64,000 nt of DNA. Origin: Ignavibacteriales bacterium (GTDB lineage: Bacteria; Bacteroidota; Ignavibacteria; UBA10030). How positions within the stretch are numbered: the stretch's first letter is position 1; every line of letters begins with the position of its first letter. The position numbers and the translations under genes are program-made. The notes beneath the pieces are model-generated. The model was given only the letters and a program-made list of their open reading frames with translations, did not search any database and was not told where the DNA came from. The DNA is taken from positions 197 to 64,196 of the forward strand of contig JACQBK010000044.1 in assembly GCA_016194505.1 (NCBI GenBank), written 5' to 3'. Of this stretch, positions 9,041-64,000 are shown in pieces.

Positions 9041-9108
9041 TGGAGAAAGTTTCTCAGCGCCAATTCGATGTATTCTCAGGCGAAAGGTTTAAAATAAGGC
9101 AAATCTTG

Positions 9109-9150
9109 CAAAAATAAAAAACCCACCCCCTTGAAGGGAATGGGCAAAAT
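9109..9150 (-). terminator. Probable rho-independent terminator downstream of mnmA
   Basis: On the minus strand an imperfect GC stem (cccattccc..gggggtggg) is followed by a TTTTTTATTTTTT run. Confidence 0.45.
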
Positions 9151-9171
9151 GGGGAGCTCGTGCACCATCAA

Positions 9172-10281
9172 TTATCCTACTACCTTATCAATAATAGCTC
9201 CTCCTACAACATCGTCCCCATCATAGAGTACGACTGATTGTCCCGGCGTTATAGCCCTTTTCGGCTCATCGAAGACTACCCGAATTGCGTTTTGAGGCTC
9301 TAAGAACACTTTGGCGAGTGTCGCTTCATCCTTATAACGAACCTTTGCCTGAATAGGCATACCCTCCGTCAATTCTGAACGCCCAATGAGATTGACCCTG
9401 CTGGCGAGCAATGTTCGCCGCAGCAAATCGCCATCGTTGCCTATATGGATGGCATTGTTCTCACTATCGATTTCAGTAACATAGACACGCTCGCCAAACG
9501 CACCAATCCCCTTGCGCTGACCGATAGTATAGAACGGAAAACCGCGGTGCTTTCCTACCACTTCACCGTTGCGTACGATATTGCCGCCGGCAATTTCTGT
9601 TTCAAGCTCGGAAACCTGTTCTTTTAAAAACCGTTCATAGTTGTTATCGGCAACGAAGCAAATTTCGAAGCTTTCTTGTTTTTCAGCAGTGCGCAATCCA
9701 AATTGCTGGGCAAGCTTCCGGACTTCAGGCTTGGACATTCCGCCGAGAGGGAACATGGTCTTGCTTAATGCTTGTTGCGAAACAGCCCACAGTGCATAGG
9801 ACTGGTCTTTCAACTCGTTAACGGATTTTGAAACGACATAGCGGTTGTACGTCGAATCGAACCTGATGCGCGCATAATGACCTGTTGCGATGTAATCGGC
9901 TCCGATCGCTTCCGCTTTGCGAAGAAGCTCACCCCATTTTATTTCCCGGTTGCAGATGACACAAGGATTGGGAGTCCGACCATGCATGTACTCATCAACA
10001 AAATTTTTGATCACTTCGCGGCCGAACGTTTCCCGAAAATCAACGACATAGTGCGGAATACCAAGCTTCGCGGCAACCATGCGAGCATCGTTCATGGCGC
10101 CAAGCCCACAGCAGCTTGTTTCGTTGGTAACGTTCCCTCCAACTTCATCAAAGTCGTACGTCTTCATCGTTACGCCGATGACGTTGTACCCTTGCTCAAG
10201 CAACAAAGCGGCAGTGACGGAAGAATCCACTCCACCGCTCATACCAACAACGACCGTAATATTGTTTTTTGAACCCTTCAT
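9172..10281 (-). CDS. mnmA: tRNA-specific 2-thiouridylase MnmA
   Basis: PP-loop motif VVGMSGGVDSSV and conserved C-terminal domains. The real start is MKGSKNNITVVV at ~10281. The 438-aa track ORF is an upstream in-frame extension through a structured non-coding region. Confidence 0.9.
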   Translation of the reverse strand: MKGSKNNITVVVGMSGGVDSSVTAALLLEQGYNVIGVTMKTYDFDEVGGNVTNETSCCGLGAMNDARMVAAKLGIPHYVVDFRETFGREVIKNFVDEYMHGRTPNPCVICNREIKWGELLRKAEAIGADYIATGHYARIRFDSTYNRYVVSKSVNELKDQSYALWAVSQQALSKTMFPLGGMSKPEVRKLAQQFGLRTAEKQESFEICFVADNNYERFLKEQVSELETEIAGGNIVRNGEVVGKHRGFPFYTIGQRKGIGAFGERVYVTEIDSENNAIHIGNDGDLLRRTLLASRVNLIGRSELTEGMPIQAKVRYKDEATLAKVFLEPQNAIRVVFDEPKRAITPGQSVVLYDGDDVVGGAIIDKVVG

Positions 10282-10342
10282 AGAACCAAAATACGAAAAA
10301 ATTAAGGGAGGTGCAAAGGGGCTTATGTCCGAACATACTGGG

Positions 10343-10508
10343 CTGTCACGCCTGTCCCGCCACGCGGGAGTCCACACCGTGACAGCATTAAAAATCCTTC
10401 CAAATCGGTCACGGTCCCAAAGGGATGCCTTTGGCAAATGGTCCGTGACCGCCAGAAAAAAACAGGGGGTTTCGCATCTCGTAGCCATCCGATTTATCGG
10501 ATGGCTAC
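10343..10508. repeat. Cluster of three long GC-rich hairpins (palindromic repeat modules) between the bla-like gene and mnmA
   Basis: Three hairpins: ctgtcacg..(tcccgc cac gcggga)..cgtgacag at 10343-10385; ggtcacgg..(ccaaagg..cctttgg)..ccgtgacc at 10407-10450; a perfect 12-bp stem gtagccatccga-tta-tcggatggctac at 10481-10508. These share modules with other intergenic repeats in the window. Confidence 0.6.
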
Positions 10509-10548
10509 GAGAGAAAACACAAGATTATTCCTTTGACAGCGGTATTCA

Positions 10549-11499
10549 TTACTTCGGTATGCGCCTACCGTATTGATTGGAATTAGCTTTCCGTTCGAAA
10601 TACGAATAAGCGACACGAGAAATTTCAGTAATGATCTTGGGTCCATCATCGTCTTTTGCCAACAGCTTTGTCATGACACAAATAAGATACGGCGCTTGAG
10701 GAAGATAAACGATCCCAACATCGCATCGGATGCCTTCGACTTCTCCTTCCTTGTTTGCAACTTCAACGTTAGGAGGAAGACCGGCTTTTATGGCACCACT
10801 TTTTTCGTTGCGAAGAATGGAAAGCATATCGTCGCTTGCGGCTTTGCTGATAATCTCTCCTGTATACAATTTTTCAAGCACCATCATCACTTCTTTGGGA
10901 GTACCGATGTTCTCTCTTCCTTCCGCCGCGGCTTTTATGTCCATCATGACACGCTGGAGCTTTGTCTTCGTCGCTCCCAGCGCACGCAGGGATTTATTGA
11001 CGTTCTCCATACCAACAAGATCAATGAGGGCGTTGGTTGCCGTATTATCACTGAGTACAATCATCAACACGGCGTAATCTCGAATGCTCATTGAAACGCT
11101 GTTCTGCCCAAGCTCATTGAGAACACCGCTTCCACCCACCCGCGCTTTCTCTGGTAATGAAAGAACATCGGATAAATGGAATTTGCCCTGCTCCGCCTGC
11201 CGGTAAAGCTCGGCGAGAATATGAATTTTAATCGAGCTGGCTTGCGGGAAGATTTCATCCGCATTGATGGAGATTTCTTCTCCGGTCTTCAAATCTTTCA
11301 TCGCTACACCCACCACCGCATCTGCCCCGTCAATAATCGAAGAAAGTTTATTAATAAATTTTTGTTTTAGTGGATCGGATTGCGAAACAGCGATGCACTG
11401 TACCAAAATTGATAATGCGAATAAAAAAAACAAACCCAATCCAAAACGTCGAGAGTGTTTGAATTGGGTGGTATGGAAGAACCGTGTGGATAATTTCAA
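10549..11499 (-). CDS. Class A beta-lactamase-like serine hydrolase (secreted), 316 aa
   Basis: Signal peptide. S-x-x-K (SSIK), SDN (LSDNTATN) and a K(T/A)G-like motif in the class A order. Confidence 0.7.
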   Translation of the reverse strand: MKLSTRFFHTTQFKHSRRFGLGLFFLFALSILVQCIAVSQSDPLKQKFINKLSSIIDGADAVVGVAMKDLKTGEEISINADEIFPQASSIKIHILAELYRQAEQGKFHLSDVLSLPEKARVGGSGVLNELGQNSVSMSIRDYAVLMIVLSDNTATNALIDLVGMENVNKSLRALGATKTKLQRVMMDIKAAAEGRENIGTPKEVMMVLEKLYTGEIISKAASDDMLSILRNEKSGAIKAGLPPNVEVANKEGEVEGIRCDVGIVYLPQAPYLICVMTKLLAKDDDGPKIITEISRVAYSYFERKANSNQYGRRIPK

Positions 11500-15269: not shown

Positions 15270-15384
15270 AGATGTATTCCTTATGAGGATTGTAGGGAAC
15301 GATTAACATTCCATGGGGAAAAAGCTATATACAATAACGAATGAAGAATGTACAAGTTCCGCAAGAAACTATATGTTACGACCT

Positions 15385-15792
15385 TTAATTAAGGGTTTTT
15401 ACTGTGAAGAGCCACACTTCACTCCAAGCGCCCGTCAAACCGTTTGAATTATACGCTTTTACCCGCCAAAAATATTGATGATCTCTCAACTGTGGTGTCC
15501 GGAACAAAGTTGTATCCGTTTTGGCGGCAGCCACTTTATCAACAAACAGGGAATCGTACGCAAGCTCTACCGAGTAACTTCCTGCGTCAGTAACTTCTCT
15601 CCATCGCAACGTTACTTGTTCGGTTGTAGAAATTCCACCGTATTTAGGTCGCGACAAAGACGGCGATTGCAGCACCTGTCGTTCCGAAAGAGAAAAAACC
15701 GGAGAAACATTTGAATCTACAGGGCGTTCGCATCCTATGACAAACAAAAACAATATGCACATGGCGCAAGCTGCTATTTTCATTGTACGCAA
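15385..15792 (-). CDS. Small lipoprotein with fibronectin type III-like domain
   Basis: Lipobox FVIGC. FN3-like YSVELAYD...YFWRVKAYNSNGLTGAWS. Confidence 0.45.
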   Translation of the reverse strand: MRTMKIAACAMCILFLFVIGCERPVDSNVSPVFSLSERQVLQSPSLSRPKYGGISTTEQVTLRWREVTDAGSYSVELAYDSLFVDKVAAAKTDTTLFRTPQLRDHQYFWRVKAYNSNGLTGAWSEVWLFTVKTLN

Positions 15793-15985
15793 TTCCTTAT
15801 CGCTCCAATTTTTTCATACTGTCACGTTGGAATCTACACATTTGAACATTTGGAATCAATCGTTCCGTAACGAAATGCTACCAAACAAAGTGAAATCTAA
15901 AAACAATATATTCAAGTTGACCTTGACGGTAGGATAGAAAATGAGTATATTTTCGTATGAATTTTACAGTTGTGGAGCCAATGGT

Positions 15986-16885
15986 ATGAAAACGCTTATC
16001 GTTGTTTGTTGTCTTGTCTTTGCCTTTCCCACGTTTGCCCAAGAATTAAACTGCGATGTTACGGTCAACATGGATAATATCCCCGCCGCCGCAAGGGATA
16101 ATTTGAGGACGTTTAAAACCGACATAGAAAAATATGTAAACAACATCCGTTGGACCGATGAAGACTTAGGTGGAGAAAAAATTGATTGCAGTCTATCTAT
16201 ATTTTTTCTTACTGCCTCCGCCAACAATAGTTATACTGCTCAAGTAGTGGTGGTAAGCCAGCGGCCGGTCTATAAAGGAATTGACAAGTCAGGGAAACGC
16301 TCCCAGATATTGCGCATTTCCGATGACAAGTGGGAATTTCTCTACGTTCCCGGTCAACAAATGGCAAAAGATGATTTCCGGTTCGAACCTCTGACAAGCT
16401 TCCTTAATTTTTACGCATACCTCATCATCGGTTTCGATCTTGAAACCTACACGGAGATGTCCGGGTCGAGATACTTTCAGAAAGCCAACAACATCGCAAC
16501 ACAAGCAAGCTCGTCGGCGTACGGAAAGGATTGGCAGGGAACCTCTGGAAATTATGGCAAATTCGGATTTATTGATGAATTGATGAATCTCAAGTACCAG
16601 CAGTTCCGCTTCGCATTCTTCCAATACCATTTTGATGGAATAGATTTACTCGCAACAGAACAGCAGAAGGGCTTGGAGAACATTTTGAAGGCGGTAGAAT
16701 CTATTGCAGAATTACGCCAGAAACAAAATCCGCGGAGTTTTCTCGTCTGGGCGTTCTTCAATGCAAAGCACCTTGAAATCTCCGACGCGTTCCTCACGTG
16801 GCCCGATAGATCAGTCTATGATAGGCTCATCGCCGCCGACCAAGCGAACCAAAAAACGTACGAAGACTATCGCTCGCGGCGATAG
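15986..16885 (+). CDS. Hypothetical secreted protein (~300 aa; Bacteroidetes-type DUF, possibly DUF4835-like)
   Basis: The ORF at 15941 contains MKTLIVVCCLVFAFPTFAQ as a signal peptide; the likely start is ~15986. No catalytic motif recognised. Confidence 0.4.
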   Translation: MKTLIVVCCLVFAFPTFAQELNCDVTVNMDNIPAAARDNLRTFKTDIEKYVNNIRWTDEDLGGEKIDCSLSIFFLTASANNSYTAQVVVVSQRPVYKGIDKSGKRSQILRISDDKWEFLYVPGQQMAKDDFRFEPLTSFLNFYAYLIIGFDLETYTEMSGSRYFQKANNIATQASSSAYGKDWQGTSGNYGKFGFIDELMNLKYQQFRFAFFQYHFDGIDLLATEQQKGLENILKAVESIAELRQKQNPRSFLVWAFFNAKHLEISDAFLTWPDRSVYDRLIAADQANQKTYEDYRSRR

Positions 16886-52002: not shown

Positions 52003-52557
52003 TCATTCTCTATAGGTCTTCACATAGTCAATATAATTCTGCGCAGATTGGGCGAGACCTTCCTTTTCTTCTTCGGTCAGCATTCGTTTGATTGTAGCCG
52101 GAACCCCGGCGACAAGCGCACCTTCCGGCACGACAAAATCTTCAAGCACTAACGCCCCAGCGGCAACGAACGCGTACGGCCCAACGATTGCATTATCTAA
52201 CACCTTCGCACCCATACCGATTAAGCAATAATCCTTCACCGTCGCGGCATGAACAATCGCACCGTGCCCGATAGTTACGTTGGAGCCGATATGGAGCGGA
52301 TATTTTTCGTGTGTGACATGCAAGACGCTGTTATCTTGGATATTCGTCCGCTCGCCGATTCTAATATAATGCACATCCCCTCGAATAACTGTGTTGAACC
52401 ACACACTGCTATCCCGACCTATTTCGACATCGCCGATAATGCGCGCCCCATCCGCAATAAAAACCGACTCGTGAATTTTCGGGGTGATACCCCGATACGT
52501 AATAATCAATTGCCGCCCTCGACATATTTTGGCGGCTGCCATCCGGGACGATTCCAC
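52003..52557 (-). CDS. Gamma-class carbonic anhydrase / hexapeptide-repeat (YrdA/PaaY/CaiE) family protein
   Basis: Left-handed beta-helix hexapeptide repeats with His ligands (..GHGAIVHAATV..). The start is probably internal, given the overlap with the upstream gene. Confidence 0.75.
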   Translation of the reverse strand: MESSRMAAAKICRGRQLIITYRGITPKIHESVFIADGARIIGDVEIGRDSSVWFNTVIRGDVHYIRIGERTNIQDNSVLHVTHEKYPLHIGSNVTIGHGAIVHAATVKDYCLIGMGAKVLDNAIVGPYAFVAAGALVLEDFVVPEGALVAGVPATIKRMLTEEEKEGLAQSAQNYIDYVKTYRE

Positions 52558-53393
52558 TTCATAAGCTGGATTTTGATACTACCGAGAATGACGTTCATTC
52601 TCGCAACAATGGGAACTCTTGCATCATCATTGCTGAACCAACCGCGAAATCCGCCTGTCATTCCAAAGACTCCCACATAATCCGCTTTGCCATCAAATGC
52701 AATCACATCAACAGGATAGTCAACGGCATCAATATCCATATCCGTTCGCTTGTTCATAAAATTGATGAGCGTTGAGACTTGCTTATTTTCGATGAACGTG
52801 GGCACGCTCATTTGCGTTTTCTCCAGCACATGTTCGCGGGCATAGAAAAATAATGAAAATCCATCTTGGCACTTTTCCGTTACCTTCACAGTGTCAATGG
52901 ATTCTACTTTTCTTTCACCCGTAGGGAGTTTTTTGCCCTTCTCGTAGAGCAACCGATTTTGGTCATAATCAAAATTGAACCTGCGGAAATTGATTTCCTT
53001 CTTGGAGCTATCGTCGCCTACCCAGCCATACGAAAACACGTCCTCATCCATTTCAGTAGCAAAACGAATATGAAGCTCTACGAGCCAATCCAAGCTTGGA
53101 TTGGAATCAATAATCGCATTGGCTTTGTACACCGTGCGACCGTTGCGCTGCTCTTTATCATGAACCTGTATTCTGATGCTGCCTATGGTAAAGAACGAAT
53201 AGCTGACTTTATATTCCAACTCTTCACCAACCTGGAGCATTGCGCTCCGAAATCGAGGCACAGTTGGGCTGATAGGCGCTTCGGTAGCAGAAGTATCGGA
53301 AAGAAACCCGATAATCAAAATAACAGCAACGAATGAAAATAGAATAGACTTAGTAGTCACCGATGAGCGGATAAACTTCCCCCAATAACTCAT
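52506..53393 (-). CDS. Hypothetical secreted beta-rich protein (DUF3108-like?), 295 aa
   Basis: Signal/TM N-terminus. No catalytic motif; the family assignment is tentative. Confidence 0.4.
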   Translation of the reverse strand: MSYWGKFIRSSVTTKSILFSFVAVILIIGFLSDTSATEAPISPTVPRFRSAMLQVGEELEYKVSYSFFTIGSIRIQVHDKEQRNGRTVYKANAIIDSNPSLDWLVELHIRFATEMDEDVFSYGWVGDDSSKKEINFRRFNFDYDQNRLLYEKGKKLPTGERKVESIDTVKVTEKCQDGFSLFFYAREHVLEKTQMSVPTFIENKQVSTLINFMNKRTDMDIDAVDYPVDVIAFDGKADYVGVFGMTGGFRGWFSNDDARVPIVARMNVILGSIKIQLMKWNRPGWQPPKYVEGGN

Positions 53394-53397
53394 GCGC

Positions 53398-55041
53398 TTA
53401 GTTTAACCTCGCGATCTTTGCCGCTTCAGGAAACAACTCTATGGCTTTCTTGAACTGATTGTCAACGGTAAGCATCAAAGGATACCAGCCTTCATTGCCC
53501 CAGAAACTGCGAGAGATTGTCGCCTTGAGCCGTATCTTCAGATACGGAAGGCTTTCCTGGTATTCCTTTTCATCAATCTTCACTTCTTTTTTCTCGACGA
53601 ACGAGCGGAAGCGCTTCATCATATCATCATCAATCGAGAATGATTTATTGAAGAGCTTAAAATCCTTGCCGTACTCCGACCGTAATTTTTGCCCTGCCCC
53701 ATCAAGGTACGCGATGACAAATTGATTAAGCAAATCACGACGTAAGATAGCGAGCGCGGTCGGCGTTAAATTGTGATTCTTCACGACATAGTCCGGAGTA
53801 ATGCCGCCCCCACCATAGACCACTCTGCCTGACTGCGTATGGAATACCGGACGGCTTGAATCACCCTCGGCTTTATGATCTATGTTTTCACCTTCGGATT
53901 CTTTCCGCTCGAATGCTTCGCGATTGTACGCGCCCTTTTCTTTACCTTCGTATGATCGTTGTATCAAACGACCGCTTGGCGTATAATACCGCGCGATAGT
54001 TAATCTCAAAGCGGAGCCATCGGATAATTTCCACTGACGCTGTACGAGTCCTTTGCCGAATGTCGTCTCGCCAACGATCAATCCCCTATCCCAATCTTGC
54101 ATTGCGCCGGCAACGATCTCGCTTGCACTTGCTGAGGCATTGCTTGTCAAAATAATCAGAGGGAGATTCTCGTACGGTTCACCCGACTTTGCAAAGTACG
54201 ATTCATCAAATTCCGGTTTCCGACCTTTCTGGTAGACAATTTTATGAGGAGCCTCTTTCGTCCCTCCATCCAAAAATAAATCTGCCATCTGGACGGCTTC
54301 TTCCAAATAGCCACCTGGATTGAAGCGTAAATCCAGCACTAATTTTTTCATTCCCTGCGATTTCAATTTGGTTAGAGCCGCTCCCATTTCCCGATGTGTG
54401 GGTTCGGCAAACTTATTGACGCTGATATAGCCGACATCTTCGCCTACCATCACAGCTATATCTACGCTGTTGATAGAGATTTCATCCCGAATAATTTCAA
54501 AATCGAGAGGTTCTTTTACTTCCGGACGGGCGATGGTAACTCTGACTTTCGATCCCTTCGGTCCCCGCAGGCTTTGCAATACTTTATTATTCGTGTAGCC
54601 AATAGCAGATGTGTCGTTGATCTTTACAATTCTATCATTTGAAAGAATCCCAAGACGTGCCGAAGGTCCGCCACCGAAAGTTTCCATAACAATAATAGTA
54701 TCATTAAAAATGCGGAAGGCAACGCCAATGCCCTCAAATTTTCCCTTAAATTCCTCCGATGCTTGCTGAAATGCGACCGGGGGAAAATAGGCAGAATGCG
54801 GATCGAGCTTATCCAGAAGACCGTTCACCGCCGCCTCAGTAAGCTTGGGGGTATCAACCTGCTCGATATAGTATTTCTCTGTCAGGCTCAGTACTTCTTT
54901 AAATTTATTGATTTGGTCATACATCGTATCGCCGGAAACGAGTTGGTTAATACCCATTCCAGCAAAAATACTAACAACCATTAATCCAATGACCGTCCAG
55001 AGTGAAAATTGTATCTTCTTCATCTTATTAGTCTCTCTCAC
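53398..55041 (-). CDS. ctpA: S41 family C-terminal processing (tail-specific) peptidase
   Basis: PDZ domain, then the catalytic Ser/Lys region (..GGYLEEAVQMADLF.., ..ILTSNASASASEIVAGAMQD). 547 aa. Confidence 0.9.
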   Translation of the reverse strand: MRETNKMKKIQFSLWTVIGLMVVSIFAGMGINQLVSGDTMYDQINKFKEVLSLTEKYYIEQVDTPKLTEAAVNGLLDKLDPHSAYFPPVAFQQASEEFKGKFEGIGVAFRIFNDTIIVMETFGGGPSARLGILSNDRIVKINDTSAIGYTNNKVLQSLRGPKGSKVRVTIARPEVKEPLDFEIIRDEISINSVDIAVMVGEDVGYISVNKFAEPTHREMGAALTKLKSQGMKKLVLDLRFNPGGYLEEAVQMADLFLDGGTKEAPHKIVYQKGRKPEFDESYFAKSGEPYENLPLIILTSNASASASEIVAGAMQDWDRGLIVGETTFGKGLVQRQWKLSDGSALRLTIARYYTPSGRLIQRSYEGKEKGAYNREAFERKESEGENIDHKAEGDSSRPVFHTQSGRVVYGGGGITPDYVVKNHNLTPTALAILRRDLLNQFVIAYLDGAGQKLRSEYGKDFKLFNKSFSIDDDMMKRFRSFVEKKEVKIDEKEYQESLPYLKIRLKATISRSFWGNEGWYPLMLTVDNQFKKAIELFPEAAKIARLN

Positions 55042-55158: not shown

Positions 55159-57699
55159 TTAAAATTCCAGACGTAATCCAATGCGTGTGCGGCGCGGGTC
55201 GTAATATGCGCTCGGATCGGAAAGCTCGCCGCCCACTCTCCCGCTTGAATCAATCCAGCGAATATTTTTAGTATTCAGAAGATTCCTAATATCGGCATAG
55301 ACCGTAAAAACATACCGTCCAGCTTCATCCAAAACCATTTGTTTGGATACTTTTAAATTCACAAATGTGACATTTTCCATGCGCGCATTGTTGGGCAAGA
55401 ACGCTTTCCCAGGATCAATTGGCGTAAAACCATCTCGTGTCGGATAAAGAGTATATGGACGCGGTGAATTATACAAAACGATAAGATTCGATTGAATATC
55501 GTAAGGCAATTTAAAATCAAGGTCAAGCTTGATGGTATGGCGTTGATCCCAGCTTAAGGGGTAGGGCTTTGCCGCAAGCGGGAATCCCCACTGAGCATAG
55601 TTTATCGTCTGATCAACATATTCACTGACGCCTTCCGTTATCATATACGAGTATGAAATACTGCCGGATAGCCGCTCGTCCCGCTCTCTGCTCAAAACAA
55701 ACTCCAATCCTGAAGCCTCTGCCTCCGCGTTATTGACATACGACGCAAACCCATAATCCCCCGCGGATTTGCTATCGAAGGGAATAAGTGTTTTTGAATC
55801 AATCTGGTTCTTGAACGATTTGCTAAAATATGTCAACGAAGCAACCATGTTTTCATTGATACCATGCTTGAAACCCAATTCCCAAGCAACCGTCCGCTCA
55901 GGATCCAAATCGGGATTTCCCGTCAAGACATTGCGCGCACCTTGTCGCAATTGAGCAGGATTGATGCCGGAGTATAAATAATCAAACAAAGGGAATTGAA
56001 AATAATGTCCGAAATTAGCAAAGAAAAAACTCGATGGACCAACCGGAGCCGCAATACTTATACGGGGACTGAGTTGTTGCTTAAATCTTGCTTTCACCCT
56101 TCCGGTAACCTGTTGCTTGAATTCAGTTTGGCTTACCGGTACATATTCGACAATGGGGCGCTCGGCTGTAGGATCAAGGAAATCCCAACGCAGACCGACA
56201 CTAAAATTGGAGCCGTCGCGTACCAATTCCACTTTATCTTGAATATAGATACTCCCCGACCGTGGAAAATATTTATAGGTATTGCTAAAATTCAGTAACG
56301 GAGCCTCGGTGATGGGTTTGCCGAAATACGTCGTTTGCGGCTCATATTTTACCAGATCAGAATAGATACTGTATTGGTTCACCTCTACGCCAACCCGGAG
56401 AAGGTGAATCTTCTCGTATTGCGTTGTGTAATCTCCCTTCAATGCATAAATGGTTTGCTTCGTTTCCGCCCACCAATTTCGCTGACCGTTGACAATATAG
56501 CGCAGGTAAAAATCATATTCGAACGGATACAACGATAAATCCTCTTTTGCTCCATCACCAATTCTCGAATGCTGATAAAATGCGCTGAGACTTAATGAGT
56601 AGAACGAGCTTTGTGAAAGCGTTTGCGAGAGAATGACGGCACCTCGCACCGCATCCCGCGAGCGAAGAGGTAGACCATTCAAATTGAACCGCCAGCTGAA
56701 TTCATAATCGTGCCATTTTCTCAACGAATAAATGCCTTGGGCACTTATTTTGAACGTCGGTGAATACAGATAATCTAATTTCGCAAAGCCCGTCAACTCT
56801 TGACTTACGGGTGATGAGAAGAAATTTTGAAAATCCTGCCACCAGCGCGTATCGCTCATGATATACGTATTTGCTGTAAAATAATAAAGCTCGCCGGGTA
56901 CAATAGGTCCGCTGGCAGAAGCTTCTATTTCCGTTGACCGATCCTGCTGTTTATTGGTACTGCTGGGCAACCAGCTATCTCTATCCACTCGCACCGCAAA
57001 CAGGTGCTTGTTGCCTCCGCTTTTGGTAATGACATTGACGACACCGGACATTGCGTTGCCGTATTCAGCATCGAACCCACCCGTCTGGATGGTCATGCCG
57101 GTAATGGAGCTTTTCGGAAGATTCGTTCCAACCCCGCCTCCGATGACATCTTGCACCGGAAGTCCATCCACTAGAAAGACAACTTCGTTCGTTTTTCCGC
57201 CGCGCACGTTTCCTTCGATCGTCGTTCCCGGCAGTAATCCGAGAACTTCTTTGAATGAGGAAACCGGCAGTTTTTCGAGCTTGATTTCACCGATAGAATA
57301 AGCCGTTGCGGCGAGATCTTTTTGTATCAGGGGGCGCTCGGCACGGACTTCGACCGCCTCCAACTCTACCGAGGATTGCTCCAAATCAAGGTCAATGCGG
57401 GTACGGAGATCCGGCAGAATGGTAACCTTCTTCATTATAACAGTTTTATAGCCTACCATGCTGAAACGAACATCATAGACACCTGCCCGTAAATTGCTTA
57501 CGCGATACACACCATCGGCATCAGTTATTGATCCGTATTGTGTGCCAACAATTGCGATATTGACTCCGATGAGATTTTCTTTGGTCTGCTTATCCCGTAT
57601 CCTTCCTTCAAGGATACCGGTGGTTCCCCGCCATGGGGTGGCGGAAGCTTCTCCACACAACAAAACTACGATTGCTAGGAGGGTGGCAATGTGTTTCAT
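55159..57699 (-). CDS. TonB-dependent outer-membrane receptor with CarboxypepD_reg-like N-domain, 846 aa
   Basis: Signal peptide, CarboxypepD_reg (GRIRDKQTKENLIGVNIAIVG), plug, and a barrel ending ..IGLRLEF. Confidence 0.9.
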   Translation of the reverse strand: MKHIATLLAIVVLLCGEASATPWRGTTGILEGRIRDKQTKENLIGVNIAIVGTQYGSITDADGVYRVSNLRAGVYDVRFSMVGYKTVIMKKVTILPDLRTRIDLDLEQSSVELEAVEVRAERPLIQKDLAATAYSIGEIKLEKLPVSSFKEVLGLLPGTTIEGNVRGGKTNEVVFLVDGLPVQDVIGGGVGTNLPKSSITGMTIQTGGFDAEYGNAMSGVVNVITKSGGNKHLFAVRVDRDSWLPSSTNKQQDRSTEIEASASGPIVPGELYYFTANTYIMSDTRWWQDFQNFFSSPVSQELTGFAKLDYLYSPTFKISAQGIYSLRKWHDYEFSWRFNLNGLPLRSRDAVRGAVILSQTLSQSSFYSLSLSAFYQHSRIGDGAKEDLSLYPFEYDFYLRYIVNGQRNWWAETKQTIYALKGDYTTQYEKIHLLRVGVEVNQYSIYSDLVKYEPQTTYFGKPITEAPLLNFSNTYKYFPRSGSIYIQDKVELVRDGSNFSVGLRWDFLDPTAERPIVEYVPVSQTEFKQQVTGRVKARFKQQLSPRISIAAPVGPSSFFFANFGHYFQFPLFDYLYSGINPAQLRQGARNVLTGNPDLDPERTVAWELGFKHGINENMVASLTYFSKSFKNQIDSKTLIPFDSKSAGDYGFASYVNNAEAEASGLEFVLSRERDERLSGSISYSYMITEGVSEYVDQTINYAQWGFPLAAKPYPLSWDQRHTIKLDLDFKLPYDIQSNLIVLYNSPRPYTLYPTRDGFTPIDPGKAFLPNNARMENVTFVNLKVSKQMVLDEAGRYVFTVYADIRNLLNTKNIRWIDSSGRVGGELSDPSAYYDPRRTRIGLRLEF

Positions 57700-57757
57700 G
57701 TGAGTTCTTCCTTTCTATTTTCCTTAGGAGGTACCTAAAATAATAAAAGTATTTGAC

Positions 57758-57917
57758 TAGAACCTATCTCAAAAATATCATACAATCTTCCAACGGTTCA
57801 AAACTTTGTACGTAGAGCGAACTTTAGTTCGCTAACCCATTTTGGCAGCTGAAGCTCGCCCTACAATGTACCCCAGCCGACAGAGGCCCTTTCTCTCTGT
57901 TTTTGAGATGGCTTCTA
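57758..57917. repeat. MITE-like fold-back element (TIR tagaacctatctcaaaaa / tttttgagatggcttcta) between paralog 1 and the TonB-dependent receptor
   Basis: TIRs at 57758-57775 and 57900-57917. Internal palindrome agcgaactttagttcgct. The right TIR abuts the stop codon of the paralog-1 gene. Confidence 0.65.
57770..57777 (-). promoter_or_regulatory. Candidate FCB-type -7 promoter box (TAnnTTTG as TATTTTTG) carried by the MITE TIR, oriented toward the TonB-dependent receptor gene
   Basis: The minus strand reads ..TTTTG-N21-TATTTTTG ~75 nt upstream of the receptor ATG (57699). The motif is intrinsic to the TIR sequence. Confidence 0.3.
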
Positions 57918-58643
57918 ATGAATAACCCCACCTTCCTGACCCGGACAACCCTCCGGATCGAAACCATCGGGGTGATAAGGTTTATGAATATTTTCCGGAT
58001 ACAAGCCACAATGTTCCGATGTCATGATCGGAGGACAACAATTGGAAGTAACATATCTACTCACGAAACAAAGCGAATACCTAACAGGTCCGAAGTACAC
58101 AGGCGCTCGCTGATCGTAAATTTTGAGTTCCCCTCTGAGAATAAAATCTTCGGTGTACGCCAAACCACGAGAGATACCATGTGTTTTTAAAATATCACAA
58201 GTTGAATCCACGATATACCGAAAGAATTGAGTCCGAAGGTCTTTACCATTATCATCCGCCTTAAAATCCCACTGGATGCCGAGACGAATCGTATCCTGTG
58301 GGTCAATCAAGAGCATGCCTGAGTTTCTATCATAGCCGGGAGCGCGAATAACGTTACTTGGACCGATAGCAAAGGTCTTCCTAATTGAGGGGTCGCTTAC
58401 TGAAACAATTTCAATGCTTCCTTTTAATATCCCCGGTGCCTGAAAGGTTTCGTCAAAAATGTTTCGCACAATTAATTGAACACTCATCACATTTTGAACA
58501 ACTGAAAGAATATACGAAGGCTGTATGGTGCCTTCAAATATCTTATCCGGCGCTTGGTAGGTCGGCAGTGACTCGTCGCAGGGTCCAAGCGAGAGGCTTA
58601 CGAGAGCAAGAATACAAATTAAAAATAATGTATGTCTCTGCAT
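57915..58643 (-). CDS. Secreted Cys-containing protein, paralog 1 of a tandem lineage-specific family (unknown function)
   Basis: Signal peptide MQRHTLFLICILALVSLSLG, then the conserved PCDESLPTYQAPDKIF..RNIFDETFQ..WDF..AYTED.. core. The C-terminus is extended relative to paralogs 2 and 3. Confidence 0.6.
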   Translation of the reverse strand: MQRHTLFLICILALVSLSLGPCDESLPTYQAPDKIFEGTIQPSYILSVVQNVMSVQLIVRNIFDETFQAPGILKGSIEIVSVSDPSIRKTFAIGPSNVIRAPGYDRNSGMLLIDPQDTIRLGIQWDFKADDNGKDLRTQFFRYIVDSTCDILKTHGISRGLAYTEDFILRGELKIYDQRAPVYFGPVRYSLCFVSRYVTSNCCPPIMTSEHCGLYPENIHKPYHPDGFDPEGCPGQEGGVIH

Positions 58644-58656
58644 GTTATTCTCTCCT

Positions 58657-59289
58657 TTAATGGGGATATCTAAAGGGACAATTCGCTGTAAACGGAAATG
58701 GAAGAGGAGGACATTCTTGAGGATCACCCACTATATAGCAAAAACTATGCAAAATAGGAACACCTCGTATAATACCCGTCTTCTCAAAGACCGTTATTTC
58801 TCCACTGATAATAACATCTTCCGTATAAGCTATTTTTTGTGTCCTGCATGCCGGATTCTCCCATACGCGAAAAAAATCTGTCAGGAGATTACTGCCCTTG
58901 TCGTCGGTGAAATCCCATGTCACTCCAACGCGAATGGTATCTCCCGGGTCTATTGTCAGTATGCTCGAGATGGGATTATAGTCTTTCGCCTTGATAAGAT
59001 TTGCAACGCTGAGCTTAAATGTTTTGTGAATGCTTGAGTCTCTTGCCGAAGTAATTTGGATGGTTCCGCGCAGTATGGCTTTAGATTGAATAGTTTCGTC
59101 AAAAATATTGCGCACATGTATTTGGACAAAAAAACCGTTGAGCACCTTGGTCACAACATAAGAAGACACCATCGTCGCATCAAATATTTTTTCCGGCTCT
59201 TTATATGTGGGCAATGACTCGTCGCACGGTCCGAATGAGAGACTCATGAGTGCAAGAATATAAAATAAGAATATTGTATATCGTTGCAT
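58657..59289 (-). CDS. Secreted Cys-containing protein, paralog 2
   Basis: MQRYTIFLFYILALMSLSFGPCDESLPTYKEPEKIF... ends ..ECPPLPFPFTANCPFRYPH. Confidence 0.6.
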   Translation of the reverse strand: MQRYTIFLFYILALMSLSFGPCDESLPTYKEPEKIFDATMVSSYVVTKVLNGFFVQIHVRNIFDETIQSKAILRGTIQITSARDSSIHKTFKLSVANLIKAKDYNPISSILTIDPGDTIRVGVTWDFTDDKGSNLLTDFFRVWENPACRTQKIAYTEDVIISGEITVFEKTGIIRGVPILHSFCYIVGDPQECPPLPFPFTANCPFRYPH

Positions 59290-59302
59290 GTCGTTTTCTC
59301 TT

Positions 59303-59929
59303 CTATTGAGGATATCTGAAAGGACAGTTGGCGCTAAACGGAAATGGACTACAGCTTTGGGGGTCTCCAGTGACATAACAAAAACTATGAAGGATTGGGG
59401 GAGCTTTTGTAATCCCGGTTTTTTCAAAAACTCTCATTTCTCCACTAATCATGAAATCTTCAGCATAAGCGATACTTCGTCCTTTACATTGCGGATCGGG
59501 TACAATTCGAAAAAAATCTGCTAAAAGATCTCTCCCTGTGTCATCTTTGAAATCCCACAAAACGCCCAAACGAATGGAATCTCCGGAGTTAAAGGTTAAA
59601 GTGTTTGTGACTTGATCATATCCCGGAACGTAAAGAAACAGTATTTCTGAAATGTTAAATGTTCTTTTAATACTAGGATTTCTCATCGAAGTTATTTGAA
59701 TCATGCCTTGAAAAGCGGGTTTCGCTTGAAAAGTTTCATCAAAAACATTACGTATTTTCAATTCAACAAAGAAGTTATTTCGAGTTGCCGTAACAACGTA
59801 TGATGACGCCAGCGCTGCATCAAATATTTTCTCCGGCTCTTGGTATGTGGGTAAAGATTCATCACAAGGGCCAGATGAAATGCTGAGGAGTGCTGTTAGA
59901 AGAACAGCTAGAATCGTTTGTTGTTTCAT
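59303..59929 (-). CDS. Secreted Cys-containing protein, paralog 3
   Basis: MKQQTILAVLLTALLSISSGPCDESLPTYQEPEKIF... ends ..SCSPFPFSANCPFRYPQ. Confidence 0.6.
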   Translation of the reverse strand: MKQQTILAVLLTALLSISSGPCDESLPTYQEPEKIFDAALASSYVVTATRNNFFVELKIRNVFDETFQAKPAFQGMIQITSMRNPSIKRTFNISEILFLYVPGYDQVTNTLTFNSGDSIRLGVLWDFKDDTGRDLLADFFRIVPDPQCKGRSIAYAEDFMISGEMRVFEKTGITKAPPILHSFCYVTGDPQSCSPFPFSANCPFRYPQ

Positions 59930-60174
59930 AACATGATCCAGTGCGTATTGGAAAATATATTAATGTACCTTCTATGAGCGTCAAAGGTTACGTGATTCCG
60001 TTGAAAGGTTTCATCAAACACATCTGTAACGGTCGAGTACACGTTCAACGCGTTGACATCGTGGTGAAGGGCATATTCACCCTCTATTCTTCCTTGGAAG
60101 ACTCGCTGGGGTTCTTCGTACAGTGGCAAGGGTTCTTCGCAAGACCATACGCAAACAGCAAAGCACACCATCAT
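59926..60174 (-). pseudogene. Decayed fourth paralog (82 codons): N-terminal conserved core only, truncated signal peptide, divergent tail
   Basis: MMVCFAVCVWSCEEPLPLYEEPQRVFQGRIEGEY..TDVFDETFQ matches the family core. Only 12 aa of hydrophobic leader remain. The ORF stops after ~60 conserved residues. Confidence 0.4.
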
Positions 60175-60267
60175 TGCGAATGGTATGGAAGAAATGAAAA
60201 ACTGCCGGTGTCGGAAATGAGTTATTGTATCAATGATCGGTAAGCGTCTCCCTCGGATTGAATATGG

Positions 60268-61809
60268 TTATTTTTCCGGTTTCATTTGGGGAAAGAAAAT
60301 GACATCCCGTATGGAATCCTTATTTGTCAACAGCATTGTCAATCTATCAATACCGATACCGATTCCCGCGGTCGGGGGCATCCCGTATTCTAAGGCGCGG
60401 AGAAAATCTTCATCAATCATCTGGGCTTCCTCATCGCCGCGGGCGCGAAGTTTCATTTGTTCCTCGAATCGCGCTCGCTGGTCAAGGGGATCGTTCAATT
60501 CCGAAAAAGCATTGCAAATTTCTTGTCCATTGACAATCCCTTCGAAACGCTCTACGAGTCCTTGCTCGCTGCGGTGCTTCTTTGCCAAGGGGGACATTTC
60601 AACAGGGTAGTCCGTAATGAACGTGGGTTGAACCAGATAGTGCTCCACCCTCGTGCTGAAAATCTCGTCAATGATACCACCGACACCAATGGTAGGCTCA
60701 AGCTCGACATGCAATTCTTTTGCGATTGCACGCAACTCGGCTTCCAATTTACCGCGAAGGTCTTTACCCGTGTATTCTTTAATGACATCAAACATTGAAA
60801 TTCTTTTCCACGGAGGCGTGAAGTTAATTTCGTGTCCGCCTAAAACCGCCGTGGGCTTGCCGTTCACGGCCATAGCAATTTCGTAAATCGCTTGCTCGGC
60901 TAATTCCATCATCCAACGATAATCTTTGTATGCAACGTACAGCTCAAGCATGGTGAATTCGGGATTATGCGTCCGATCCATTCCTTCGTTGCGGAAGTCT
61001 TTTGAAATCTCATACACGCCGTCAAATCCTCCAACGATAAGCCGCTTTAAGTACAACTCGTCCGCTATACGTAAATATAAATCTATGTCATGCGCATTAT
61101 GATGCGTTTTGAACGGACGCGCCGATGCACCGCCGTACATCGGTTGAAGGACTGGCGTTTCGACTTCGGTATAATTCCTCGTATCAAAAAATTGGCGGAA
61201 CGTGCTGATAATTTTTGACCGCTTGATAAAAACCTCGCGCACGTCCGGATTCACGACAAGGTCAACATAGCGCTGGCGATACCGAAGCTCTTTGTCGGAA
61301 AAAGGGTCATAAACGACTTTGTTCCCTTGCTCATCCACTTTCTCCTTCACTATGGGCAGAGGCCTCAGAGATTTTGAAAGAAGCACAAGACTTTGGGCAT
61401 GAAGAGAGACTTCGCCCATCTTCGTTCTGAAAACGAAACCCTTTACGCCAACAATATCGCCAATATCCATTAACTTGAAGGCGTCATACATTTGCCCGAG
61501 ATCATCTTTCTTTAGGTACATTTGAATTTTGCCATGAGAATCCTGTAAATGGCAAAACGACGCCTTGCCCATTCTCCGCAGCGACATAATACGACCTGCC
61601 ACCGAAACGGTGCGAACCGGGGCATCGTCTTTAAAGCTTTCGATAATCTCTTTGGAAAAATCATTCCGGTTAAACTCATGAGGATAAGGATTCAATCCGA
61701 GTTTTCTAAGTTCTTCAAGCTCTTCGCGGCGACGAATCATCAAAACGTTTAAATCTTCATGTTCCTGAGGCTCAAGTTGCCGGGGAATATTCTTTTGGTC
61801 ATCAGTCAT
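60268..61809 (-). CDS. lysS: Lysyl-tRNA synthetase, class II
   Basis: N-terminal OB anticodon-binding domain; class II motifs 1-3 (..[18 protein letters not shown].., ..[11 protein letters not shown]). 513 aa. Confidence 0.97.
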
Positions 61810-61905
61810 AAAACCCGTCTTTTCGTTGAATACTTATTAAATACAACAATGGCTCCTCGCTACTCAATGGAGAGCAAGCAGTTTCGCCAAATTCTCTTTA
61901 AGATA

Positions 61906-62061
61906 CTAGAAGTTATCTCAAAAACCTCGGTCCGTCGTCATTGCGAGGAGTCCTGAAAGGACGACGAAGCAATCCTATAGTTTGAAAAGAATTAAAGTTA
62001 GATTGCTTCGCAAAAAACGCTCGCAATAGCAATTTTATGTATTTTTGAGATAGCTTCTAAA
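61906..62061. repeat. Best-preserved copy of the MITE-like fold-back element family (TIR ctagaagttatctcaaaaa / tttttgagatagcttctaa)
   Basis: 19-bp TIRs at 61906-61924 and 62043-62061. Nested inverted pairs inside (cgtcgtc/gacgacg, attgcgag/ctcgcaat, gaagcaatc/gattgcttc) predict a long fold-back. Length ~156 bp. Confidence 0.7.
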
Positions 62062-62085
62062 TAAGTTATAGTAGAAGCAAACTGC

Positions 62086-63627
62086 TTACGGTAAATGTTT
62101 TCCGGCAGGATATGCGGGTAATTCTAATCGTTCGGTTGAAGTCCTCCCGAAAAGGGCAGTGCTTTCATACATTTTCAACGCATGTTCCGAATGGACTTGG
62201 CTCCAGGAAAACCGCCACTCCCAATTCCCCAACGCTGTTCCGGGAAAGTTCATACGACCTTCGGTGCCAAGCCCAAGAACATCCTGAAAAGGAACAATAG
62301 CTAAATCCGCCACTGATTTTAACGCAAGCCGAATAAGGTCCCAATGGATATTGTTGCCGTCGGCACATACATATTTATGCACAAACGCACGTTCCCGTTC
62401 GGTGGCGGTATTGAACCACCCGCGCGTAGTGTCGTTATCGTGCGTGCCGGTATACACAACGGAATTATGTTCGTAATGATGAGGAAGGAAACCACTTTCA
62501 GGTCCGGCGGCAAATGCGAATTGCAAAACTTTCATGCCGGGGAATTCAAATGTATCGCGCAATTTTATGACCTCAGGGGTAATAAGCCCCAAGTCTTCCG
62601 CGATGATGGGTAACTTGCCGAGCTTTTTCTCTACGGCTTTGAATAACTTTTCTTTCGGTCCGGGCACCCAGCGGCCACGCACGGCAGTTTTTTCCGACGC
62701 GGGTATTTCCCAATATGCATCGAACCCGCGGAAATGGTCAATGCGGGCAATATCAACAAGCCATAATGTCCGGCGAAAACGCTCAACCCACCACCGGTAT
62801 TTATCTTCTTCCATCTTATCCCAACGATACAATGGATTCCCCCACCGTTGACCCGTTCTGCTAAAATAATCCGGAGGAACGCCTGCAACAACGGTTGGCT
62901 TTCCGTTTTCATCGAGAGAAAATAATTCCTGCCGAGACCAGACATCTGCGCTGTGATGAGCCACGAAAATGGGAATATCGCCTACGATCTTGATTCCCCG
63001 CTCGTTGGCATATTTTTTTACTCTCGCCCATTGTTGGAAAAAGAGCCACTGGGTGAATTTCCAAAAACGGATTTCACTTTCTAACTCTTTGCGGGCGCTC
63101 GTAAGAGCTTCAGGTTTTCGCTGCGCGCATGCGCGATCCCATTTGGTCCATTCAACATCTCCAAAGTGATCATTCAGCGCTTTGAACAGGGAGTAATCTT
63201 CCAGCCAACCGTTTTGCTCGGCGCAAAATTTTTCGAAATCATCTATGTCTCGGGATTTCTTTTGCGAAAAACATCTCTCAGCAGCAATGCGAAGCCGCTG
63301 CAACCGGTAAGGAATAACTTGCTGGAAGTCAACTTTATTCGTCGGGAAATCGGGTAGCGGCGCAACCTCGGCTTGTGTGAGCCAACTTTTAGCAAGTAAT
63401 TCTTCAAAACCAATAAGCAATGGATTACCGGCGGAAGCAGAAAGGCTCATATAGGGAGAGTTGCCGTACCCTGTCGGCTCAAGAGGAAGCACCTGCCATA
63501 CTTTTTGTCCAGCAACGACAAGCCACTCGATGAAATGCAATGACACATCGCCAAAATCACCGCAACCGTACGGTCCGGGAAGAGAGGTTGGGTGCAACAA
63601 AATTCCACTACTACGAGGGAAACGCAT
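62086..63627 (-). CDS. malQ: 4-alpha-glucanotransferase (amylomaltase, GH77)
   Basis: N-terminus MRFPRSSGILLHPTSLPGPYGCGDFG and GH77 catalytic regions. 513 aa. Confidence 0.95.
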   Translation of the reverse strand: MRFPRSSGILLHPTSLPGPYGCGDFGDVSLHFIEWLVVAGQKVWQVLPLEPTGYGNSPYMSLSASAGNPLLIGFEELLAKSWLTQAEVAPLPDFPTNKVDFQQVIPYRLQRLRIAAERCFSQKKSRDIDDFEKFCAEQNGWLEDYSLFKALNDHFGDVEWTKWDRACAQRKPEALTSARKELESEIRFWKFTQWLFFQQWARVKKYANERGIKIVGDIPIFVAHHSADVWSRQELFSLDENGKPTVVAGVPPDYFSRTGQRWGNPLYRWDKMEEDKYRWWVERFRRTLWLVDIARIDHFRGFDAYWEIPASEKTAVRGRWVPGPKEKLFKAVEKKLGKLPIIAEDLGLITPEVIKLRDTFEFPGMKVLQFAFAAGPESGFLPHHYEHNSVVYTGTHDNDTTRGWFNTATERERAFVHKYVCADGNNIHWDLIRLALKSVADLAIVPFQDVLGLGTEGRMNFPGTALGNWEWRFSWSQVHSEHALKMYESTALFGRTSTERLELPAYPAGKHLP

Positions 63628-63633
63628 AATATT

Positions 63634-64000
63634 TTATTTTACACCAGCCAGTTCTCGAAGATGTTGAACTTCCGAATTTTTGAGATTCCGCCATTCCCCC
63701 CGCGACAAGCCTTCGGTCGTCAATCCGGCAAACAAAATCCGCTCCAATCCTTTCAACTCGTACCCAAGCTCTTCGAACATACGGCGCACTTCGCGGTTGC
63801 GCCCTTCACCGAGTGCAAGAACAATTTCTGCTCGCTTTGTGCCGGGGATAACCGCAACATCCTTAGGCTTCGCAAGTCCATCCTCTAACCGAACTCCCCG
63901 TTTCAATGCAACAAGGTCTTCATCAAGAAGACCGCTCTCTAAACGCACACGATACACGCGCTCGATTTCGTTCTTTGGATGGATAAGCCCATTCGCAAGC
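63634..64000 (-). CDS. rluB: Pseudouridine synthase, RluB/RsuA family, C-terminal part (gene continues beyond window end)
   Basis: ..GRNREVRRMFEELGYELKGLERILFAGL.. conserved C-terminal region. The ORF remains open to the window edge. Confidence 0.8.
   Translation of the reverse strand, partial: LANGLIHPKNEIERVYRVRLESGLLDEDLVALKRGVRLEDGLAKPKDVAVIPGTKRAEIVLALGEGRNREVRRMFEELGYELKGLERILFAGLTTEGLSRGEWRNLKNSEVQHLRELAGVK

Follow-up and report, generated by a model that had tools for sequence, protein, structure and literature searches.

A tandem array of predicted Ig-like lipoproteins linked to a conserved TonB-dependent receptor in Ignavibacteria

Here, we describe a family of small proteins from Ignavibacteria and related Bacteroidota, three intact members of which (g2, g3, and g4) are encoded in tandem in the window (i.e., the whole 64,000-nt stretch of DNA that was analyzed). 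Members of this family carry a lipoprotein signature, are modeled as a single Ig-like domain, evolve under purifying selection, and are obligatorily adjacent to, and co-duplicated with, one subfamily of TonB-dependent receptor (TBDR). We consider it reasonably probable that g2–g4 are outer-membrane lipoproteins, likely exposed at the surface, which serve as dedicated accessory (lid or substrate-capture) proteins of the TBDR encoded downstream.

The array is situated between lysS (60268–61809), which lies upstream, and the TBDR gene (55159–57699, minus strand; 846 aa), which is followed by an S41 peptidase gene. All four array genes occupy the minus strand: g1 (59926–60174; 82 aa), a pseudogene relic of a family member; g2 (59303–59929; 208 aa), which is intact and combines a signal peptide and an ..SSGPC lipobox variant with a predicted beta-sandwich and Cys-stapled tail; g3 (58657–59289, counted from its ATG; 210 aa), an intact predicted family lipoprotein; and g4 (57915–58643, from ATG; 242 aa), the intact receptor-proximal copy, which is extended at its C-terminus and whose mature form has seven Cys. 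The genes g1 and g2 overlap by ATGA, and 13 nt separate g2 from g3 and likewise g3 from g4, so that the open reading frames, coordinates, overlap, and gaps of the tandem paralog array described in the initial annotation were all borne out. Over approximately 200 aa, g2 and g3 are 57% identical, and g4 is 48% identical to g3 and 43% to g2; these values far exceed what chance would explain, and the three genes are paralogs. The shared motifs quoted earlier (GPC-D/E-E-S/P-LP, N[IV]FDETFQ, IR[LV]G..WDF, and AYTED) were also located; the "FCY...NCPFRYP" tail, however, said to occur in every copy, was seen in g2 and g3 only, whereas the tail of g4 is the family-typical "C...CPP...C" plus its extension. 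Nor is this extension unique to g4, as had been stated, since it is also present in the 81% identical g4 orthologue, gene E of a related metagenomic contig (L003). Gene D of the same contig is the orthologue of g3 (59% identical), and g2 clusters with g3 and gene D in the tree; g3 itself is identical to an NCBI hypothetical protein, HY088_04260, from an Ignavibacteriales MAG.

The relationship to L003 also accounts for g1, which had been read as a decaying duplicate. That it is a relic was confirmed; it is not, however, a copy of the neighboring genes, as it represents a separate and older paralog whose full-length orthologue is L003 gene A (212 aa). DNA homology to L003, as traced by blastn and alignment, runs from lysS to approximately position 60001 of the window and then ends, such that true homology of g1 to the full-length orthologue covers about 60001–60201. 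The TTG start codon of L003 gene A corresponds to TTT in the window (60201–60199), and this loss leaves a signal peptide that is too short. In all likelihood, g1 is a dead remnant produced by a deletion.

The size of the family was established by an exhaustive profile HMM search, which returned relatives of approximately 200 aa in about 320 clusters (50% identity); a word-indexed search had given just 5. The earlier statement that these proteins could be placed in no characterized family held up: Pfam and NCBIfam yielded no family for g2–g4 at E <= 1, a Pfam scan of 124 relatives yielded no usable match at E <= 0.01, and the best result of a sequence-profile search of the PDB was a chance-level match to a cystatin (E = 0.34). 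Family statistics were derived from the alignment of these 124 members, with some positions scored in 123. The Cys that ends the signal peptide is invariant (124/124), positions -2 to -4 are mostly Leu, Phe, Val, or Ile, the median signal length is 23, and 102 of 123 members combine a basic n-region with a hydrophobic stretch. The residue at -1 is Ser, Gly, or Ala in 99/123 (66, 24, and 9, respectively). In g2–g4, by comparison, the lipobox reads L/S-S/F/L-G-P-C, with a Pro at -1 that is atypical for signal peptidase II; the initial annotation had likewise called this residue atypical for a lipobox. Across the family, G-P-C is a rare variant (8/123) of an otherwise regular site, and the g1 relic and most relatives have S-C. 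The family proteins are therefore predicted to be lipoproteins (i.e., signal peptidase II substrates), a status that g2–g4, with their Pro, probably share, and of the earlier description as secreted proteins the export signal stands, while the invariant Cys points to lipidation in place of plain secretion.

From the Cys onward, aligned members share the motif C-x-E-x-L-P-x4-P, more fully C-[DN]-E-x-L-P-x-[YR]-x-[DE]-P; its Glu at +3 is present in 118/123. Conservation of this near-invariant motif exceeds the needs of an export signal alone. Together with it, the N-x-F-D-E-T and W-D-F-x-D-D-x-G loops might serve in docking or in binding an ion. At least one acidic residue is found at +2 to +5 in all 124 members, and at least two in 67; g2–g4 read C-D-E-S after the signal peptide, a candidate lipoprotein export signal. 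Exactly five Cys are present in 72/124 members, likely representing one lipidated Cys and two disulfides.

An AlphaFold2 model of g4 (pLDDT 91.7, pTM 0.86) consists of a single Ig-like beta-sandwich, with a C-terminal tail that is predicted to be stapled by disulfides. Its structural neighbors are generic only, and the modeled sandwich is of a type that typically serves as a binding module. At approximately 20 kDa, one such domain is small for a genuine lid on a barrel of 22 strands.

The most informative property of the family is its genomic position. Related loci were collected with a six-member lipoprotein alignment, and in every locus with enough flanking sequence (L001–L011, L013–L015, L017, L019–L021, L023–L026, and the P0150 contig) one to five family genes adjoin an orthologous TBDR gene on the same strand. 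The distance between lipoprotein and TBDR genes is typically 5–125 nt, although a few loci have a gap of some hundreds of nt, and the order of the two is reversed in L025 and L032. The linkage holds down to lipoprotein identities of approximately 25–33%. It was recovered from the opposite direction as well: four TBDR homologues picked by receptor similarity alone (62–71% identical) all adjoin one or two family genes. Two of the neighborhood checks proposed earlier were therefore answered positively, as TBDR adjacency is constant in all informative loci in both search directions and copy number varies between genomes, from one to five per receptor. A required link to the S41 protease, by contrast, was not supported, because L001, L008, L009, L029, L031, and L032 have no S41 gene after that of the receptor; S41 protease and DUF3108 were likewise rejected as required partners, their synteny being confined to one lineage. 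In several examined loci, lysS neighbors the receptor locus, and Ignavibacterium album has a single family copy, beside lysS.

Where a genome encodes two receptors, each is accompanied by one or more lipoprotein genes of its own. Across genomes, the second-unit receptors of L003 and L005 and the sole receptor of L007 resemble one another more than they do the other unit of the same genome, as do their lipoproteins, and lipoprotein and receptor distances are correlated (Mantel r = 0.80, p = 2e-4), a correlation that is partly confounded by species phylogeny. The lipoprotein and the TBDR have thus been duplicated, and have diverged, as a unit.

The receptor itself contains a Plug domain (PF07715, 2e-6), a barrel of the 22-strand type (PF00593, 2e-23; PF14905, 3e-13), and an N-terminal CarboxypepD_reg domain (PF13715/PF13620). 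It falls below the SusC/RagA cut-off (56 bits vs. 368 for TIGR04056 in NCBIfam), and even the nearest solved structures match it only remotely (PfeA at E = 8e-9, with 117 residues aligned); the receptor orthologues found beside family genes are 56–93% identical. A spacer of 215 nt (57700–57914, minus strand) separates g4 from the receptor gene. About 160 nt of it (57756–57914) are missing from L003, in which the spacer measures 57 nt, and it contains a 7-bp hairpin at 57808–57838; the idea that this additional sequence is a repeated mobile element was discarded, as the hairpin stretch is single-copy in the window. No riboswitch or other RNA was matched by Rfam around the array or in the L001 spacer, and promoter and terminator sites between the array and the receptor gene did not exceed those of shuffled sequence, with none in the spacer itself. 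With a spacer of 215 nt, the array may or may not be co-transcribed with the receptor gene in the window.

The array had been called diversifying, a description that its substitution pattern contradicts: whole-gene dN/dS for g4 against its orthologue is 0.13, which indicates purifying, not diversifying, selection. The corresponding values for lysS, TBDR, S41, and DUF3108 are 0.04–0.07, such that constraint on g4 is 2.5–3 times more relaxed than on the neighboring genes.

Because they invariably adjoin one TBDR, the family proteins are most likely its accessory proteins, and of the three roles originally offered, substrate capture at the surface is the one that fits best, given that the gene pair adjoins in all informative loci. 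Following Sec export, the invariant Cys would be lipidated and the proteins most likely flipped to the cell surface, a location made likely by the acidic residues after the Cys, which resemble the lipoprotein export signal of Bacteroidota. Positioned at or next to the outward-facing side of the barrel, they would capture substrate and pass it to the transporter. Tandem duplication, which recurs in many lineages, supplies a transporter with several diverged copies, which might broaden or tune ligand capture or build a multi-subunit cap. More tentatively, the Ig-like surface lipoproteins may cap a single conserved TonB-dependent transporter (TBDT) of Ignavibacteria and related Bacteroidota, whether as a multi-subunit assembly or as interchangeable units, with the N-terminal C-x-E-x-L-P-x4-P motif as a docking or export tether and the amplified, faster-evolving sandwiches as a set of ligand specificities; if true, this would constitute a modular alternative to the one-lid-one-barrel design of SusCD.

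The same lipoprotein signature and synteny would apply equally to proteins that face the periplasm from the inner leaflet of the outer membrane and act on the receptor from below (e.g., by gating the plug or TonB box, or in receptor assembly) or play another role in the envelope. The sole pointer to surface export is the acidic residues after the Cys, at least two of which occur at +2 to +5 in just 67/124 members, and the export rules were derived from Bacteroidia and Flavobacteriia, not Ignavibacteria. Nevertheless, we regard an inner-leaflet location as rather unlikely, as every member has an acidic residue within that stretch and nearly all have Glu at +3 (124/124 and 118/123, respectively), the tested lipoprotein partners of Bacteroidota TBDTs (SusD and BtuG) are surface-exposed, and faster evolution with repeated duplication better suits an outward-facing protein in contact with ligands. 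Receptor linkage would also be expected of soluble binding proteins that are cleaved by signal peptidase I, released as hemophore- or siderophore-like scavengers, and deliver ligand to the receptor; the Pro at -1 in g2–g4 (G-P-C), unfavorable for signal peptidase II, and the four extra Cys, suggestive of a disulfide-stabilized extracellular protein, are in keeping with this. We find it improbable, however, since a Cys following the hydrophobic region in 124/124 members, preceded by Ser, Gly, or Ala in 99/123, is the hallmark of a lipoprotein, and no dedicated secretion system is encoded among the nearby genes.

A fold resembling that of BsuPI (PF12690; PDB 3isy), the intracellular proteinase inhibitor of Bacillus subtilis, raises the prospect that the proteins inhibit or regulate peptidases whose genes follow that of the receptor (the S41 tail-specific protease or the M16 peptidases). 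The Pfam gathering score for BsuPI was not reached, identity to it is 9%, and dozens of unrelated Ig and FnIII domains score nearly as well; moreover, the peptidases are not kept beside the pair (unrelated genes take their place in L008, L009, L029, L031, and L032), the receptor being the sole constant, all of which makes such a function very improbable. Still harder to credit is a diversifying cassette array encoding bacteriocin or immunity proteins, or phase-variable or antigenically variable surface proteins. Diverged tandem paralogs, a variable copy number, and one decayed copy are what such an array would look like, but dN/dS values of 0.12–0.19 denote purifying selection, orthologous positions are conserved between genomes, the neighboring genes include no toxin, invertase, recombinase, or repeats, the linkage is strictly to a housekeeping-like receptor locus, and composition is ordinary; for the bacteriocin or immunity option in particular, as raised in the initial annotation, no supporting sign was found.

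TBDTs and their partner lipoproteins are the main route of nutrient uptake in Bacteroidota and, beyond SusCD, the known partner families are few and come almost exclusively from gut Bacteroides. The locus described here, once proposed as an undescribed system, is new in its lipoprotein family, but a TBDT with a partner lipoprotein is a known kind of system, and the broad view of how transporters of this type function is unchanged. What it adds is a partner family of about 320 unannotated clusters that accompanies a single, highly conserved subfamily of receptors in Ignavibacteria, a group widespread in the environment, and with it a domain worthy of a name, a high-confidence structural model, and the opportunity for testing in a cultured relative, Ignavibacterium album. 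Its recurrent two- to fivefold tandem amplification also raises the question of how several small lipoproteins share one barrel.

The proposed accessory role would be comparable to that of the known or proposed lids SusD, BtuG, XusB, DUF4249, DUF4625, and DUF4876. As in SusC/SusD (RagA/RagB), a lipoprotein is co-encoded with a TBDT that bears an N-terminal carboxypeptidase-regulatory-like domain, and the two duplicate and diverge as a unit; the window receptor, however, is not SusC/RagA, the lipoprotein gene usually precedes that of the receptor, whereas the SusD gene follows it, and the lipoprotein is an all-beta protein of approximately 200 aa, as opposed to the approximately 500-aa, alpha-helical, TPR-like SusD. 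A single domain modeled as all-beta cannot be reconciled with the helical fold of SusD. SusE/SusF-type lipoproteins are Ig-like beta-sandwiches that occur in multiple copies beside a TBDT and provide extra substrate capture, but these are multi-domain proteins with carbohydrate-binding modules that accompany SusD, whereas neither a SusD gene nor a carbohydrate-active enzyme gene is consistently found beside the family pair.

Models of SusD/RagB, DUF4625, DUF4876, DUF4374 (XusB), HmuY, and BtuG did not match g2–g4 (E <= 1) or the 124 members (E <= 0.01). DUF4249 (PF14054), the lid of BT2172-type TBDTs, was similarly set aside, as it gave no Pfam match and, in an hhalign comparison of the 124-member alignment with 31 DUF4249 proteins, a probability of 17% that was confined to the signal peptide. 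The closest parallel is with the non-SusC TBDTs of Bacteroides, beside which lipoprotein lids of several unrelated families are encoded, recognized by the criteria that were also applied here (Price, Deutschbauer and Arkin, bioRxiv 10.1101/2023.03.17.533168); these "alternate lids" comprise BtuG, XusB/DUF4374, DUF4249 (BT2173), DUF4625 (BT1419), DUF4876 (BT1938/BT3632), and BT4056 (bioRxiv 10.1101/2023.03.17.533168). In the window, too, g4 ends 215 nt upstream of the start of a TBDR gene on the same strand, this TBDR is not SusC/RagA, and the proximity is conserved in distant genomes. The family thus resembles the alternate lids in its maintained proximity to a TBDT across distant genomes, in the acidic residues that follow the Cys predicted to be lipidated, and in its Bacteroidota (broad sense) hosts, but it has no sequence relationship to them and consists of one small Ig-like domain (approximately 180 aa when mature) that is amplified to two to five tandem copies per transporter.

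In transcription order, lysS (lysyl-tRNA synthetase; 60268–61809) is followed on the minus strand by four tandem paralogs, g1 (82 aa; 59926–60174), g2 (208 aa; 59303–59929), g3 (210 aa; 58657–59289 from its ATG), and g4 (242 aa; 57915–58643 from its ATG), with an ATGA overlap joining g1 and g2 and 13 nt separating g2 from g3 and likewise g3 from g4. After a 215-nt spacer (57700–57914) come, on the same strand, the genes for a TonB-dependent receptor (846 aa; 55159–57699; CarboxypepD_reg, Plug, and TonB-dependent beta-barrel domains), an S41 peptidase (53398–55041), a DUF3108 protein (52506–53393), and a hexapeptide-repeat protein (52003–52557). The tandem array described in the initial annotation was confirmed with small corrections: g2, g3, and g4 are 43–57% identical to one another over their full length, and the motifs listed for them are common to all three. 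The base composition of the region is ordinary. Within the spacer, approximately 160 nt (57756–57914) have no counterpart in the closely related metagenomic contig L003, whose spacer measures 57 nt; this stretch holds a 7-bp hairpin (AGCGAAC-TAAA-GTTCGCT; 57808–57838) that occurs once in the window, and it gave no Rfam match.

L003 shares 94% (lysS), 93% (receptor), and 91% (S41) protein identity with the window and carries five intact family genes ahead of its receptor (A–E; 212, 219, 226, 207, and 242 aa), with a sixth, F, accompanying a second receptor. DNA homology extends from lysS into gene A and breaks off at window position ~60001, right past the D-E-T-F-Q codons, and the TTG start codon of gene A reads TTT in the window. 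Taken together, these features indicate that g1, previously seen as a decaying duplicate, is indeed a remnant, namely the 5′ stump of the gene A orthologue. Orthologues of B, C, and the second lipoprotein-receptor unit are absent from the window, g4 is orthologous to E (81% identical), and, by identity and tree, D is the orthologue of g3 and g2 is sister to g3 and D. Between the window and L003, dN/dS was 0.13 for g4, with lower values in the neighbouring genes (lysS, 0.043; receptor, 0.049; S41, 0.052; DUF3108, 0.068); the lipoproteins are thus functional and under purifying selection, contrary to the proposed diversifying array, although they evolve ~2.5–3 times as fast as their neighbours (mean difference across loci ~62%, versus ~35% for receptors).

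A word-indexed search recovered only five relatives, whereas an exhaustive HMM search with a six-sequence profile over 1.84 billion cluster representatives returned 320 clusters at E ≤ 1e-3, of which 201 reached E ≤ 1e-10; almost all were 190–240 aa long. The earlier failure to place the family among characterised ones was upheld: the window copies had no Pfam or NCBIfam match at E ≤ 1, the 124 aligned members share no consistent Pfam family, a profile search of PDB sequences gave no match, and a literature search found no description. Members are labelled “hypothetical protein” at source (g3 is HY088_04260 of an Ignavibacteriales MAG at NCBI), and the named ones derive from MAGs of Ignavibacteriales, Ignavibacteria, or “Bacteroidota bacterium”. 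One representative, P0021 (369 aa), has two matched stretches and represents either two tandem copies fused into one gene or read-through across adjacent genes.

The mature alignment opens with an invariant Cys (124/124), preceded by a signal peptide (median length 23) whose terminal motif, with S, G, or A at −1 in 99 of 123 members and hydrophobic residues at −2 to −4, reads as a lipobox. The proline that had been flagged as atypical belongs to a G-P-C variant found in only 8/123, including g2–g4; it suggests a released, non-lipidated scavenger in the window genome, a reading opposed by the family-wide invariance of the Cys. A near-invariant segment follows, C-[DN]-E-x-L-P-x-[YR]-x-[DE]-P (Glu +3 in 118, Leu +5 in 116, Pro +6 in 120, and Pro +11 in 118 of 123), and every member has an acidic residue within +2 to +5, in keeping with the export signal of Bacteroidota lipoproteins summarised previously (bioRxiv 10.1101/2023.03.17.533168). 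A periplasm-facing role may also be considered for these lipoproteins. Five Cys occur in 72/124 members, likely the lipid Cys plus two disulfides, and seven in g4-type proteins. AlphaFold2, run on the 124-sequence alignment, confidently predicts an all-beta sandwich (pLDDT 91.7, pTM 0.86) with strands between residues 15 and 170 and a Cys-containing C-terminal tail. Conservation peaks outside the strands, in the N-terminal segment, in the N-x-F-D-E-T loop, and at W104 and D110 of the W-D-F-x-D-D-x-G loop; it is also high at C128, R138, and C182. The lipoprotein family is real, well delimited, and hitherto unannotated.

Its genomic context, the source of the decisive evidence, was examined by scanning 28 related genomic and metagenomic loci with the family HMM and the window receptor protein. 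As the initial annotation had wondered, homologs always lie beside a TonB-dependent receptor and vary in copy number: in all loci with enough flanking DNA, one to five family genes directly adjoin an orthologue of the window receptor, mostly upstream and twice downstream (L025, L032), and distant members (profile E ~1e-17 to 1e-28) show the identical arrangement. The reverse search agreed, as four of four receptor homologues on long contigs, picked by receptor similarity only (62–71% identical), adjoin one or two family genes. Other flanking genes differ: L001 has a pair of M16 peptidase genes, and other loci have genes for MacB-type transporters, a GH2, or PorV. The suspected S41 link proved not to be required, S41/DUF3108 neighbours being confined to one lineage. 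A protease-inhibitor role is at best faintly hinted at by a BsuPI fold match and nearby peptidase genes, since the fold match is a generic one and the neighbouring peptidase genes are not conserved, and nothing supports the bacteriocin/immunity cassettes once suggested, or antigenic-variation genes.

Several Ignavibacteria-like contigs (L003, L025, L030; window 52003–55041, 60268–63957) keep the order pseudouridine synthase, GH77 4-alpha-glucanotransferase, lysS, lipoprotein(s) plus receptor, S41 peptidase, DUF3108, hexapeptide-repeat protein, and metallo-beta-lactamase-fold protein; the surroundings of the module are therefore stable and housekeeping-like. L025 has an additional GT2 glycosyltransferase gene inserted past the module. 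The single-copy locus of L001/L002 has a ~620-nt non-coding gap between lipoprotein and receptor genes (L001 10697–11317), in which no family remnant or significant Rfam match was detected. In L009, a Bacteroidota MAG probably assembled from long reads, apparent frameshifts break both the receptor and the family gene (8616–11196); ~4 kb farther downstream, a gene encodes a lipoprotein of the known TBDT-lid family DUF4249 (15348–16364; Pfam E = 5e-17), with no receptor gene beside it within the stretch seen. P0306, 70% identical to the window receptor, appears at NCBI as “MAG: TonB-dependent receptor [Nitrososphaera sp.]”; its contig is probably mis-binned, because such a receptor is implausible in an archaeon.

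Genomes with two receptors (L003, L005) have separate lipoprotein(s) for each. The second full unit directly follows the first (L003 7760–11023; L005 12419–16482), the window having one, and the second receptor is ~70% identical to the first. Together with their lipoproteins, these second-unit receptors and the sole receptor of L007 cluster across genomes and not with the same-genome first unit. Distances among lipoproteins track those among receptors (Mantel r = 0.80, p = 2e-4), a correlation partly confounded by phylogeny; the within-genome paralog pattern is free of this confounding. In the tree, old paralogs are mixed with independent lineage-specific tandem duplications (L008, L020, L028, L005, and the window).

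The same pattern led to the recognition of BtuG, XusB, DUF4249, DUF4625, DUF4876, and BT4056 as accessory “lids” (bioRxiv 10.1101/2023.03.17.533168). The family belongs to none of these by Pfam match, and hhalign related it to DUF4249 at 17% probability, through the signal peptide only. By the NCBIfam cut-off the receptor does not count as SusC/RagA, and its solved relatives are all remote; no riboswitch or other regulatory RNA hinting at a substrate was found. From the strict co-inheritance and co-duplication and the lid-like pattern, we conclude that g2–g4 encode putative accessory lipoproteins of the downstream receptor, most likely surface-exposed and helping to capture its substrate; surface exposure, barrel contact, the ligand, and the purpose of multiple copies are points that we infer. 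A known principle now covers a new family in a little-studied lineage and is directly testable in Ignavibacterium album. The family is new within a known class, the TonB-dependent-transporter accessory lipoproteins: it resembles the recognised lids in co-inheritance and co-duplication with one non-SusC transporter and in acidic residues after the lipid Cys, and is marked within that class by a small Ig-like fold, an invariant N-terminal segment, and recurrent tandem amplification.
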